NCBI GenBank assembly: GCA_963733195.1
Contig: CAVTCR010000023.1
Coordinates: 1 to 47,658, forward strand
From: an uncultured delta proteobacterium
Lineage (GTDB): Bacteria; Desulfobacterota; Binatia; Bin18
Direction of reading: 5' to 3'
Length of the DNA stretch: 47,658 bases
Made by a program: the position numbers and the translations under genes. The notes below the pieces were generated by a model. The model made no database searches and had not been told where the DNA came from. It saw nothing but the letters and a program-made list of their open reading frames with translations. Each line of letters starts with the position of its first letter. Within the stretch, counting starts at the first letter, position 1. Positions 14,503 to 18,590 of the stretch are shown here, piece by piece.

Positions 14503-15343
14503 TTAGCGTGGCGCGAGAGCCTGAAGTCCGCGCTCATCAGCGCCTAGCTCACCATCAGATCGCAATGGTACGATGCAGACATGGTTCGCACCAGCGCGGA
14601 ACTGAGCATCGACGTGCGCGCGTAGCCGCCCCTCGTTCCCCCAGGCGACTATCGCATCTACCAGGCGATCACTCCCACCCTCAGCAAAGTCCTCGTCGTT
14701 GAATCCCAATGCACGCAAGCGATGGATATAGTGCTCAATCGCCATATAGATCTGCATATAGCGGCGCGCCGCTGCACGTGCCTTTGTGGCGTCAGTTTCT
14801 AACATCACTAATTGTACTGCAGCCAACCAGGGTTTCGGGCCGATCGCTTTACGATACCCTGCTACTTGTTCGGTCGTGGTAAAGTAGGTTAGCGTTCCTT
14901 GCGTTTCCGAGGCCGCGAGCTGTAGCATTTTCGGCATCATGGCGGCGAGGACGATCGGCGGCTCGTGCGTTGGCTTCGGGGCATTGTACGGCGCAGATTT
15001 CATTTTCGCCACGTAGTCACGCATGAAAGAAACCGGTTTTTCATAGCCGACGCCGCGCCGCGTATTGTATGTCTTATTACTGACCCCGAGTCCGAGAATG
15101 AAGCGGTTATCGAAGAGTTCGCTTAACGTGCGCGCCGCCCCCATCGCGGCAATAGGCTCGTAGGTATAGGCGATTGCAACTCCTGTCCCTACAGTTAACC
15201 GTTCTGTTTGACTCAGGACATAGGTCGAAAGCGAGAAGATTTCTCGCCCCATGATTTCGGGAACCCAGAGCGCACCGTAGCCCAATTCTTCAATCTTGCG
15301 AGCAAATGGCCCGATTTCTATACCTTGCAAGATGTCGAAAAAG
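14503..15343 (-). pseudogene. LLM-class, probably F420-dependent, oxidoreductase (TIGR03620-like); native 5' end removed at the IS1 boundary
   Basis: Motifs FARKIEELGYGALWVPE, RFILGLGVS, SDRLVDAIVAWG and AGANHVCI. The reading frame runs directly into the IS inverted repeat at 15344 with no native start. Confidence 0.8.
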
Positions 15344-16187
15344 GGTCGTGTTCTCAAATTGTTGTTAGGGTGGGGATTAGATGGGCGTCCCGAACTCGTA
15401 GCGATTCGCAAAGAGTCCTATGACGGTATCGTGCATGAACCCGGATTTCGAGAACCAAATGGTTTTGCGAGCTCAGCGCTTGATGCGGGTCCGTCGCGTG
15501 AGAGGTTTGCGTTCGAGCTGCTGGGGGTTGCTTTTGCCAATGGTATGCGCCGCTGTAGGCAGGGGCCACGCAGAGACTCCCGCCCCAGCCGTGTAAAGGG
15601 CTCCAGGCCAAAGGGCTTGAGCAACTTCTGCAACTCGATGAAGACTCTATCCGCTCGACTGCCGAAGACAGACACCAGGACCACGCCGCTCACATGATCA
15701 ATCGCCTGCCAACCAGCACTGGGGGGCTTGGCTTTGCACGAAACTCCACCTCTCATCGCCCTCCGCGGCTTCGACGCGCCGCACTTCGACCGTGAGCGCC
15801 TCCGGACAACAGCCCTCCCCGCCGCTCGTGTTGACCTGGGACAGACCGGGCGGCTTTTTTTTAATTCGCGAAGCCCGGTATTGGACCCGACCTGCAGGAC
15901 GCGGGCACTATCGCGGATCCCCCTCCCCTTGAGTGTCAGGTCCACGCTCTGCTGCTTCACCGTCGGCAAACAGCCGGGAGAGGCAGAGCTGCGTAAAAAT
16001 GTCCGCCCCCACGCCGCGCTTTGCTGACAGCGACACCGCTCCTTGCCATTGCTCGTCTTGCCATACTTCACGACCGCCTTACTCTGACAATGGGGACACT
16101 TTACTGCTGCCTCAGCCATCGGTTGTTTCTCCTTCTCGCCCACACGATACCTGTCTTTTCTCCTATCAACAAATGGGAGACACGACC
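15344..16187 (-). mobile_element. IS1-family insertion sequence, 844 bp, degenerate, no target duplication
   Basis: 26-bp imperfect TIRs GGTCGTGTTCTCAAATTGTTGTTAGG and GGTCGTGTCTCCCATTTGTTGATAGG (20/26 identical) enclose insA/insB-like coding sequence. The flanks (...CGAAAAAG and CCCGAGAT...) are not duplicated. Confidence 0.92.
15377..16119 (-). pseudogene. insAB: IS1 transposase InsAB, inactivated
   Basis: InsA Zn ribbon CPHCQS..VVKYG and HTH GIRD.ARVL; A8 slippage site at 15855-15862; InsB motifs DE.WSFV, AIDH and RIKR*ARKTI.FSKS..MHDTVIGLF.NRYEFG. In-frame TGA at 15473-15475; catalytic YTD has become YTA. Confidence 0.9.
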
Positions 16188-16369
16188 CCCGAGATATTTG
16201 TTTTGCCGTCGATATGGACGGTCATGATATAAAACTCCTTCTGCGTCGGTGAGGCCGCGCGTTGCTGTTGAGGAGCAGCCTGAGTGGGGGTGTCGTACTC
16301 TGTTGCTGCGGCAAGCTGCCCCCAGCCTGTCACGAGTAACCCTGCAAGAAGCATATGCACGTGTCTCAT
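16188..16369 (-). pseudogene. Secreted protein, 3' part cut off at the IS1 boundary
   Basis: Strong RBS (GAGGAGG), signal-peptide-like MRHVHMLLAGLLVTGWGQLAAA, then ...KEFYIMTVHIDGKTNISG. The frame enters the IS TIR and stops at 16166. Confidence 0.65.
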
Positions 16370-16450
16370 TGACCTTCCTCCTCGGTTGAATTGCCGTGCG
16401 CTTCGCACTGTCATCTGACATAACTACTCCCGTGCAAAAAAATTCCATCT

Positions 16451-16594
16451 GAACGGAGCGTGAGCACAGCGCGGCGATTGCACGCTACAACACGCTCCAT
16501 AAGACGGCTATTGTCACTCGGCACTCCAAGTATCTCAAAAATATATGTGGAGCAGGCTATAGCGGGGTAAAGCGAGTGGTGAAGCCAATGCTCG
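16451..16594 (+). mobile_element. IS6-family transposase relic (internal fragment)
   Basis: With two compensating indels it translates to AAIARYNTLHKTAIVTRHSKYLKNIVEQ.YSGVKRVVKPML. This matches the IS6 signature KYLNNxxEQDHRxxKRxxxPMLG. Confidence 0.72.
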
Positions 16595-16987
16595 ACGATC
16601 TCTGCAAATTCACCTCGCGGCTCCGACATGTTCAATCTCCCTGGGATCGTGTCTATTTTTTTAAGTGCGTATCGAACCGCGCTTCCGCCACCCGGATTAA
16701 CTCGCGATAGAAGTGTTTCTCTGGCGTCCCTGCTCGTCTACACCTGAAATTTGCGACAGATCCCTTTTTTGCCGTTGTTGGCACGCAGAATCGGTCACGA
16801 GCCCATCACGAGCATCTGATCCCTGCTTCTGCGAACCTGTAGTGTCAAGTAATGCATAATCGCCTATGCATTCGTGCACTACGGTACGATAGTTGCCTGT
16901 CAAACTTCACGGTGCCACGGGTGGCAGAGACACGCCACCGTATGTTACGCTGTCACAGCCTGTGGGAGAGAACGGAGGCTCGGCCAT

Positions 16988-18364
16988 ATGATGGTGCCTG
17001 TGCGCAAAGCTTCACCAATGCTCAGCTTCTGGCTGGCGTTGACGTTCTTTGCCGTTCTCCAGTGGATCGCGCATACACAGAACAGCATTCCCCGCATAGA
17101 CCTCATCAGCGACCTCGCGGGATTCGTGGCGCTAGCCTTCAGTGGCCTCCTGCTCAGCCGTCAGATCAATGCACATCGCCAAACGGAGCAAGAACTACGT
17201 CATGTCCACGAGGCATTGGACCAACGCGTGCAGGAACGCACGGTCGCGTTGACAGAGGCTAATACAGAATTACGTACACACATTGTTGAACGAGAGCGCG
17301 CGGAAGCGCAGCTTCGTAGTCTGATCAATGCGACTCAAGATGCCGTGATCACGATCGATCGCGAAGGACGCATCCTCTTGTTCAATCCTGCTGCCGAGCG
17401 CATCTTTGGCTACACGCGCGTAGACGTGCAGGGACAGCTTGTGCAGACCCTGATGCCCGAGCCCTACGCGAGCGAACACAATGGCTACATTGCCCGCTAC
17501 GAGCAGAGCGGCGAAGCGCGTGCGATTGGCCGGATCCGTACCGTTGCTGCACGGCGCAAGAATGGCGAGGTCTTTCCGATTGAACTGTCGGTCGCTGAGA
17601 TTACCACTCCCGATGAGACTACCTATGGTGCCTTTATCCGCGACATTTCGGACACGGTACACCTACAAGAACAACTGGTGGAGCGGGAGCGCCTAGCGGC
17701 GATTGGCACCACGGCGGCTACCTTTGCACACGAGGTCGGCAATCCACTCAATAGCATGCTCATGACGGGGCAACTCTTGGAGCGCTATCTCGTCAAGAAT
17801 CACGATCAGATTGATCAGAAGGCAGGTGAGACGCTACAAAACCTCATGAGCGAGATTAAGCGGCTCTCAGCCCTTCTCAGCGAGTTCCGCTCGCTCGCAC
17901 GCCGCCAGAAACTCGATCTGCGTCCAGTCTCACTGTCCACAGTCATCGCCGATGTATTGGCAGTGGAAACTCCGTCATACCAAGATAGCGGTGTACGTGT
18001 AGAACAGGATGTCCCTATCGATCTGCCCGTGGTTGTCGTCGATGCAGAGAAAGTACGGCAAGCGGTGCTCAACCTGTGTAAGAACGCGGTAGAAGCGATG
18101 CCACAGGGCGGAACACTGCGGGTGAGTGCGAACCACCAAGAAGGGACTATTCGTGTAGCAATCAGCGACACCGGGGCCGGTATTCCACCAGGTGTAAACA
18201 TTTTTGAGCCGTTTATCACGACAAAATCTCAAGGTACCGGGCTGGGGTTAACTATTGTTCGCCAGATTGTTGCGGCTCATCATGGCACGCTGACCTATCA
18301 AAGTACGCCGGGGCAAGGGACGACGTTCACCCTGGAGTTACCGGTCACACCGCCACCAGGATAA
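16988..18364 (+). CDS. Membrane-anchored FixL-like heme-PAS sensor histidine kinase
   Basis: Two TM helices and a coiled coil precede a PAS domain, FNPAAERIFGY...LMPEPYASEHNGYIARY...IGRIRTVAARRKNGEVFPIELS, which keeps the FixL-type proximal His and distal Arg. H-box FAHEVGNPL; N/G boxes NAVEAM, DTGAGI and GTGLGL. RBS GGAGG precedes ATG 16988. Confidence 0.9.
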   Translation: MMVPVRKASPMLSFWLALTFFAVLQWIAHTQNSIPRIDLISDLAGFVALAFSGLLLSRQINAHRQTEQELRHVHEALDQRVQERTVALTEANTELRTHIVERERAEAQLRSLINATQDAVITIDREGRILLFNPAAERIFGYTRVDVQGQLVQTLMPEPYASEHNGYIARYEQSGEARAIGRIRTVAARRKNGEVFPIELSVAEITTPDETTYGAFIRDISDTVHLQEQLVERERLAAIGTTAATFAHEVGNPLNSMLMTGQLLERYLVKNHDQIDQKAGETLQNLMSEIKRLSALLSEFRSLARRQKLDLRPVSLSTVIADVLAVETPSYQDSGVRVEQDVPIDLPVVVVDAEKVRQAVLNLCKNAVEAMPQGGTLRVSANHQEGTIRVAISDTGAGIPPGVNIFEPFITTKSQGTGLGLTIVRQIVAAHHGTLTYQSTPGQGTTFTLELPVTPPPG

Positions 18365-18368
18365 GATA

Positions 18369-18396
18369 GTAGGGACACGGCACGCCGTACCCCTAC
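18369..18396. repeat. GTAG-type REP palindrome
   Basis: GTAGGGACACGGC-AC-GCCGTACCCCTAC lies just after the kinase stop codon. A related copy is at 21331. Confidence 0.7.
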
Positions 18397-18457
18397 CAGC
18401 CCAAAGGGAACAACAGAGCAAAAAACCCACCACAAGAGTAGCAAACCGCTTCCAGTT

Positions 18458-18503
18458 TTCTTATTGTTGCAAAAGCGTGCGCCAATTTTCTCAAAAATGA
18501 GAA
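18458..18503. promoter_or_regulatory. Tandem candidate enhancer (bEBP) sites, pair 1
   Basis: TTCTTA-ttgt-TGCAAA (18458) and TTCTCA-aaaa-TGAGAA (18488), 30 bp apart. Confidence 0.75.
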
Positions 18504-18544
18504 CCACCTACCGCATTTTCCGACTGCTGACGAGGTGTATGTCG

Positions 18545-18560
18545 TGGCACTCCCTGTGCT
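18545..18560 (+). promoter_or_regulatory. sigma54 -24/-12 promoter (CBS gene plus response regulator)
   Basis: TGGCACTCCCTGTGCT, GG-N10-GC spacing. Confidence 0.8.
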
Positions 18561-18590
18561 ATTGAGAAGATCACAGCACAGGAGGTTTCT

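Follow-up and report, generated by a model that had tools for sequence, protein, structure and literature searches.

The subject of this study is a dead insertion sequence (IS) of the IS1 family whose interior is laden with A:T to C:G transversions. It lies in a contig of 47,658 nucleotides from an uncultured delta proteobacterium of the Binatia; this whole stretch is referred to below as the window, and it is contig C23 of a genome assembly (G000) of 87 contigs and 6.95 Mb. The element and its parts, in window coordinates, are as follows:

15343..16188, minus strand: dead IS1-family insertion sequence of about 845 bp (blastn copies, Pfam and NCBIfam scores)
16162..16188, no strand assigned: terminal inverted repeat at the transposase-start end, a 27-nt arm present in all five genomic copies (alignment)
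15343..15369, no strand assigned: terminal inverted repeat at the transposase-stop end; the flank homology of genomes G001 and G002 ends at 15342/15343
15863..16119, minus strand: InsA-frame part with zinc ribbon and helix-turn-helix, ATG at 16119-16117 (sequence, frame of the intact relative L126, Pfam)
15855..15862, minus strand: A8 run where the InsA and InsB frames meet, a likely site of programmed -1 frameshifting
15377..15862, minus strand: remnant of the InsB (DDE) frame, disrupted by indels and substitutions, stop at 15379-15377 (tblastn, alignment, codon effects)
15443..16035, minus strand: interval with the 29 A:T to C:G changes at family-conserved columns
15418..16143, minus strand: 241-aa open frame, a mosaic pieced together from stretches in the InsA frame, the InsB frame and a wrong frame; no functional transposase

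The element shares with the IS1 family (InsA, InsB' and the InsAB' frameshift product) the zinc ribbon and helix-turn-helix of InsA, an A-run between the two frames, terminal inverted repeats, a length of about 0.85 kb and, in its intact relatives, the DDE_Tnp_IS1 part. The two 27-nt repeat arms show 78% complementarity. The A8 run is conserved in all aligned copies, and in tblastn searches with an intact protein the genomic copies change frame at this run; we take such an A-run to be the IS1 frameshift site, which makes 15855-15862 a candidate. The 241-aa frame passes the models for Zn_ribbon_InsA (PF03811, 28.9 bits, cut-off 26.1) and HTH_Tnp_IS1 (PF12759, 36.7 bits, cut-off 24.9), and falls below the cut-off for the IS1 DDE domain (PF03400, 13.8 bits, cut-off 24.1) and for NCBIfam transpos_IS1 (NF033558, 61.2 bits, cut-off 100). 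An intact soil-metagenome relative, P0007, reaches 153.4 bits with PF03400 and 188.9 bits with NF033558, and since this relative passes the IS1 models where the window copy fails the DDE domain, the lineage is a member of IS1 and the window copy has decayed. Unlike a working IS1, the window copy is dead, with its DDE match below cut-off, a conserved D replaced, breaks in the frame and no target-site duplication. Two indels throw the frame off and produce the 241-aa mosaic: one additional C follows the A8 run, and 2 bases present in the sister copies are missing. No transposase is therefore encoded, and the copy is non-autonomous. Frameshifts alone are no proof of a pseudogene in this assembly, because it carries indel errors: two frameshifts break rpoB (C71:137166-141235) into three frames, and valS (C31) and a uvrA-like gene (C83) are likewise split.

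With blastn, five full-length copies were found in G000, namely the window copy and those on contigs C30 (98.1% identity), C9 (94.0%), C58 (85.2%) and C3 (76.2%), together with three IS1 fragments. These five were combined with one copy from G024, one from G001 and 27 from soil-metagenome contigs, and a tree was built from the resulting 34. Deviations were counted in the 25 copies of the crown clade (the nine left out being eight outer-clade copies and one duplicate), a deviation being a departure from a majority of at least 75% of the other copies, with each copy's closest kin removed from its panel; for the window copy, whose kin are C30, C9 and L194, the panel comprised 21 other copies. The relatives compared are not independent of one another. 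A scan of contigs by patterns requiring an intact DEMWSFVG returned only intact IS1 relatives of other phyla, and these were kept out of the counts.

The window copy departs from the family at 54 conserved columns, by 29 A:T to C:G changes (called hits below), 18 transitions and 7 others. On the coding strand the 29 are 16 T to G and 13 A to C, and every one is a single-base change that alters an amino acid. A preliminary description, made from the letters alone, had reported an IS1 interior rich in such transversions, with more than 20 deviations at conserved residues, and the present count agrees with it in amount and in direction: set directly beside the clean relative L126, the window copy shows 41 T to G or A to C differences and 6 of the reverse kind. 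The individual examples were also recovered, including C to W twice, Y to S four times, M to L, M to R in the DEMW motif, S to R, I to S, V to G five times, H to P three times, K to Q, T to P, L to R, and D to A (GAT to GCT) at a conserved D. The changes do lie in the interior, the 29 being located at 15443-16035, and a recount of bases 15721-15840 again gave 83/120 G+C. Transitions had been put at a handful, too few given the 18 counted. The further claim that the ends of the element are spared holds for the window copy, where 0/93 conserved A/T columns at the ends are hit against 29/235 in the interior (p=5e-5), and fails as a general rule, since across 11 hit copies the end segments are hit at 7/22, 12/33, 6/22 and 2/16 columns vs 98/235 for the interior.

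The excess is found in many copies of the element. While the window copy has 29/54, the other four genomic copies have A:T to C:G shares of 33/53, 28/55, 39/60 and 8/21, and several metagenome copies are hit in the same way (L183 23/50, L177 18/34, L199 27/72, L194 11/22). Others are ordinary: L126 has 0/27, L191 0/21, L124 3/34, L128 3/39, L156 3/33, L182 3/29 and L127 4/43. Compared with the baseline at four-fold degenerate sites of the host (26/391, see below), the excess in the window copy has a Fisher p of 4e-16, and the IS copies as tested range from p=4e-16 to 7e-24. Hit copies have a G+C fraction of 0.56-0.595 and ordinary copies one of 0.51-0.55. Amelioration toward host composition was considered as a cause and is ruled out, the 0.59 of hit copies exceeding the 0.539 of the genome.

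Of the ordinary copies it can be said that 308 of the 322 possible A:T to C:G changes in coding columns are non-synonymous and only 14 are silent, so selection removes such changes from working copies, which appear clean for that reason. What separates clean from hit copies is thus largely that the former are live and the latter dead, and the clean relatives did not escape. What has to be explained is the composition of changes within dead copies, where the coding hits are non-synonymous without exception in C23 (29), C3 (38) and C58 (8).

The nesting of changes among the closest copies dates the episode. On the branch common to C23, C30 and C9, from which L194 is absent, 18/20 changes are A:T to C:G; on the older branch that these three share with L194 the figure is 4/20, and among the changes private to L194, their metagenome sister, it is 7/10. 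Changes private to single genomic copies look quite different, with 0/6 in C23 (all of them transitions), 0/14 in C9 and 1/1 in C30, and the difference between stem and private changes is significant (p=3e-9). It follows that the process came in episodes and made changes of almost one type only. Because the window copy shares most of its hits with C30 and C9, the scars predate insertion at the window locus, and the sharp boundary seen there is accordingly uninformative as to targeting. Nor is the process acting on the window copy in place: the private changes (0/6 and 0/14) are ordinary, so this copy is not under attack now, and after landing it decayed with the transition-rich spectrum that is usual for its host. 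Three of its six private changes are C to T in a CG dinucleotide (at about 15720, within 15670-15676, and at 15570), two of them in GCGC; deamination of methylated cytosine is a possible cause.

Separate bursts occurred in other lineages of this IS family, including ones seen on soil-metagenome contigs. The dead lineage itself stayed mobile, as its three copies in G000 (C23, C30 and C9) attest. By a count on the alignment, L194 and the window copy differ at about 51 of about 632 positions, and about 35 of these differences are of the A<->C/G<->T kind; the flank of L194 is only 82% identical to G000.

To learn how the host itself mutates, changes were assigned to the terminal branch of G000, that is, to sites at which G001 and G002 agree and G000 differs. 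Seven single-copy genes (rpoB, the start of rpoC, gyrA, a parC-like gene, a uvrA-like gene, valS and a second aminoacyl-tRNA synthetase gene) provided 2424 four-fold sites with 391 changes, among them 26 A:T to C:G and 236 transitions. For rpoB on this branch the A:T to C:G share is 9/249 overall and 8/210 at third positions, the 2 kb adjoining the element give 5/119, and a non-mobile second copy of valS, 95% identical to the first, gives 1/16. That second copy is partial, lying at the end of a contig (C70:111442-113035) with 95.3% identity to the C31 copy and one in-frame TGA; a duplicate, a pseudogene and a second strain in the bin are all possible readings. Transitions occupy about 2% of sites in the dead copies vs about 10% of four-fold sites, from which it follows that the copies are younger than the split from G001, and host genes would have recorded a genome-wide episode of that size. 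With ordinary spectra at four-fold sites (26/391), in the flank (5/119) and in the duplicated valS (1/16), a genome-wide mutT-like bias is rejected. The preliminary description had likewise judged a genome-wide cause of the mutT type a poor fit, and on this point the housekeeping genes, the flank and the valS duplicate bear it out. The mutT gene itself is of no help, a sub-threshold NUDIX match being present in G000 and in all 25 relatives searched, which is uninformative either way.

A related proposal is that the host has a general A:T to C:G bias that becomes visible only where selection is relaxed. This would leave the clean copies clean through selection, and there is a hint of it in the 23S rRNA genes of the genus, where 18/57 changes on three branches are A:T to C:G (18/72 when the changes private to G002, 0/12, and to C62, 0/3, are added) vs 13/219 in other lineages. 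The 16S gene and spacer gave 3/21 on the genus branches, too few changes to have any power. The two 23S genes of G000 (C64:35529-38488 and C62:57882-60857) are 95.4% alike, the 16S genes of its two rRNA operons differ at 33/1566 columns, and the C64 gene has derived changes in common with the 23S of G002, 8/17 of them A:T to C:G. The proposal founders on the counts already given, with 26 A:T to C:G changes against 236 transitions at four-fold sites, 8/210 at rpoB third positions and 5/119 in the flank, on the absence of hits among changes private to the window copy (0/6) and C9 (0/14), and on a four-fold-site G+C of about 53% in rpoB and the start of rpoC. These counts refute it unless G- and C-ending codons are very strongly selected against at four-fold sites, and we consider it hardly credible.

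If the present host never mutated in this way, the elements might have been scarred elsewhere, inside mutator cells of the mutT type, before escaping by horizontal transfer into normal genomes. Both the type and the purity of the changes match the mutT signature, which a passage of PMC3556519 describes as a rise of more than 100-fold, made up of A-to-C changes; the dead lineage crosses host lines, and the four-fold sites speak for a present host without such a burst. The difficulty is one of dose. Eighteen hits in about 328 A/T columns amount to about 5% of sites, and by our estimate from E. coli mutT rates a mutator clone would need on the order of a million generations for each burst. Moreover, at least eight lineages had separate bursts, each of which would require its own donor and its own escape, and all five G000 copies, from three sub-lineages, are hit. 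A mutator donor therefore strikes us as an unlikely source.

Scars of point mutation restricted to mobile DNA are known from fungi, as repeat-induced point mutation (RIP), and from retroelements, as the work of APOBEC. RIP makes C to T transitions, is triggered by duplication and strikes both copies. The IS1 scars resemble it in that mobile or repeated DNA is inactivated by many point mutations of one type, and differ in the type itself (A:T to C:G), in having no marked context, and in that near-identical triplicates are not hit. The preliminary description had proposed a trigger of this repeat-directed kind; with three copies that are 94-98% alike and go unhit, it is unsupported. A rival reading is a mutator dedicated to genome defence, which like a bacterial RIP or APOBEC would recognise mobile or repeated DNA and kill it by converting A:T to C:G. 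The excess is limited to mobile elements and nearly pure (18/20), it occurs in several IS families and in independent bursts in many lineages, and it destroys the transposase, with 29/29 hits non-synonymous and the conserved D and DEMW among the casualties. This last observation loses its force when set against expectation, the non-synonymy matching chance (308/322). Copies 94-98% alike are now left alone, with private changes of 0/6, 0/14 and, for C30, 1/1, and the 95%-identical non-mobile valS duplicate is ordinary at 1/16. No candidate gene or system turned up, though no systematic search was aimed at one, and we know of no enzyme that converts A:T to C:G in double-stranded DNA. We regard a defence mutator as unlikely.

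In all, 125 distinct A:T to C:G events were identified among the copies, 62 T to G and 63 A to C, so the process is strand-symmetric, and no GGT-type or copy-the-neighbour context was found among these events. Two trivial sources, the Illumina GGT to GGG error and copy-the-neighbour slippage, can be set aside, neither context being present. Strand symmetry and want of context are what one would predict if wrong nucleotides were incorporated from the pool. Near purity, strand symmetry and little context are also what MutT deficiency and 8-oxo-dGTP (oxidised dGTP) mutagenesis produce; MutT deficiency, however, acts genome-wide, whereas the process seen here is episodic and limited to mobile elements. 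APOBEC3 hypermutation and diversity-generating retroelements offer another parallel, as one-type bursts tied to the copying of mobile elements. Both are strand-specific, APOBEC3 causing G to A changes on one strand and the retroelements altering the adenines of one strand, which is unlike the 62 and 63 events counted here, and no reverse transcriptase is implicated.

Could the pattern be an artefact of sequencing, assembly or polarisation? The assembly does have indel errors, including the two frameshifts that split rpoB, and polarity was set by majority rule. Moreover, no public run contains the whole stretch and none has half or more of the sampled words. Low-depth contigs from four runs of four studies do cover parts of the stretch, other parts being without cover, and one contig of 309 nt matches 15596-15901 with 15 differing letters and 3 gaps. 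Among the places listed where such contigs differ from the window, 15/23 in the element are of the A<->C/G<->T kind vs 2/17 in the flanks (p=0.001), so that element and flank stand apart in these independent contigs as well. Individual hits are also nested among the copies, and short-read metagenome contigs from other projects carry hits of the same kind, L194 sharing some of the very sites. There is no error context of the GGT type, single-copy genes in this assembly have ordinary spectra, and lineage-unique states must be derived. An artefact is thus very unlikely.

Another possibility is that the mutation rate was never raised, and that biased repair of heteroduplexes, by removal of A from A.G mispairs in the manner of MutY, drove C:G alleles through the repeats. 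Copies within a genome share more hits than expected (9 vs about 3.9 in one comparison and 5 vs about 0.8 in another), some patterns conflict with the tree, such as C30 and C9 together against C23, and a milder excess is present in the two-copy 23S rRNA. A MutY-like gene is present in G000 (267 bits, just below cut-off). Such a drive requires a donor that already has the C:G allele, yet most hits are unique to a lineage (about 30/39 in C3, and in the triplet as well); an excess of 15- to 100-fold is out of reach of a drive among 5 to 8 copies; and 16S shows nothing (3/21). We think it improbable that repair drive accounts for the pattern.

We tentatively favour the view that the element, while being mobilised or transferred, was now and then copied at low fidelity with oxidised dGTP, a reading that may well be right though we stop short of calling it probable. 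In each burst the element would be copied once or a few times by low-fidelity synthesis, with errors at the percent level, in a step that readily places 8-oxo-dGTP opposite template A. One candidate for this step is synthesis by a Y-family polymerase in recombinational repair of transposase-made breaks, and another is copying while the element resides on a vector that replicates separately, in the course of mobilisation or horizontal transfer. Copying of this sort would befall mobile DNA and not resident genes, which would leave the scar on mobile DNA only, while copies with a working transposase would appear clean because selection had purged their A:T to C:G changes. G000 encodes two Y-family polymerases besides its MutY-like gene. 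Same-strand hits fall in fewer runs than expected in the window copy (9 vs 14.6, P=0.027) and in C3 (11 vs 19.4, P=0.0035), which fits tracts of one-strand synthesis. Mutagenic break repair is not known to yield near-pure A:T to C:G changes at the percent level. E. coli break repair with Pol IV does resemble the proposed step in being local, episodic and linked to repair synthesis (PMC5542668); in the IS1 copies its putative starting point would be transposase breaks. Both ingredients have precedent in passages of the cited work, 8-oxo-dGTP being misincorporated opposite A to give A-to-C changes (PMC3556519) and break repair turning mutagenic through low-fidelity polymerases (PMC5542668).

Several observations weigh against low-fidelity copying or limit its reach. 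While the pattern is plain to see, the mechanism is deduced from mutation type alone, and genes for Y-family polymerases and MutY-like proteins are common, so that their presence proves little. Copying is not always mutagenic, since no hits followed duplication among the private changes of C9 (0/14) and C23 (0/6), and at least one broken relative, L144, is close to ordinary at 14/111. The polarity of changes comes from comparison with majority and outgroup. As many as 35 of the 125 events recur in separate clades, and this recurrence, together with the excess sharing between copies of one genome (9 vs about 3.9; 5 vs about 0.8), means that hot spots or gene conversion also contribute. The clustering of same-strand hits is non-significant in 7 of the 9 copies tested and runs in the opposite direction in L199; the long A to C run occupies one and the same region in lineages independent of each other, and site preferences, not tracts, could be behind it.

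In full-text searches of the literature, whose hits were seen in part, no report was found of A:T to C:G hypermutation confined to bacterial IS elements, and we are not aware of point-mutation scars of any type that mark these elements alone. Should the bursts be tied to mobilisation, as under low-fidelity copying, then a copying step in the spread of IS elements can be highly error-prone, transfers of dead elements can be dated and traced, and G+C-rich, unrecognisable IS relics missed by annotation are accounted for. A broader claim, that bacteria of this soil lineage have a process, whether a defence or a property of copying, which in a single episode turns several percent of an IS's A:T pairs into C:G and so kills it, is unlikely in our view. 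Were it true, it would be a bacterial analogue of RIP and APOBEC with chemistry unseen before, acting on several IS families and leaving a datable scar, and, if a defence, genome immunity of a new kind. In both cases, dead mobile elements are a poor guide to the mutational bias of a species.

The signature extends beyond IS1, weaker versions being present in an IS110-like copy (C6:99002-100716, A:T to C:G 60/217) and an IS4-like copy (C48:1456-3153, 35/165), where polarity comes from 4-6 copies only. The IS200-like and ISL3-like families and one more have a mirror pattern, as is expected where most copies share the hits; in the IS200-like family the odd copy out shows 15/22 apparent C:G to A:T changes. 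Together with copies at C30:17996-18572, C25:48459-49034 and C80:2385-2833, the copies on C6 and C48 make up a set of IS110-like, IS4-like and IS200-like elements with a weaker or shared excess. Singletons in three-copy families give 1025 A:T to C:G vs 937 C:G to A:T, and are poorly polarised. A repeat family of about 0.9 kb (C43:21237-22194, C47:63235-64113, C26:1862-2825), for which a Pfam search returned no match, exceeds everything else in the genome in its share of A<->C/G<->T differences, which reaches 0.63 (of 38 differences). The left flank of the C3 copy of IS1 (L019:841-1498) is repetitive as well, matching G001 at 8 places, and that copy is nested in mobile DNA; being a repeat, this flank is unusable as a flank control.

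At the window locus the element sits at a break in synteny, for the homology of the left flank with G001 and G002 ends exactly at the element edge and the right flank (16189-18580) has no adjoining counterpart in either genome. No direct repeat flanks any of the five full genomic copies, as read from the alignment; at the window copy a target-site duplication may have been removed by rearrangement, which is possible since the right flank is non-syntenic in G001 and G002. To the left lies one further feature:

14503..15342, minus strand: F420-dependent LLM-class oxidoreductase gene (TIGR03620), its start lost at the element edge

The gene matches TIGR03620 at 229.9 bits (cut-off 219.8), only from model position 24 onward. 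The element has taken away the opening codons of this gene together with its promoter; in G001 and G002 the gene extends about 40 nt past the IS junction.

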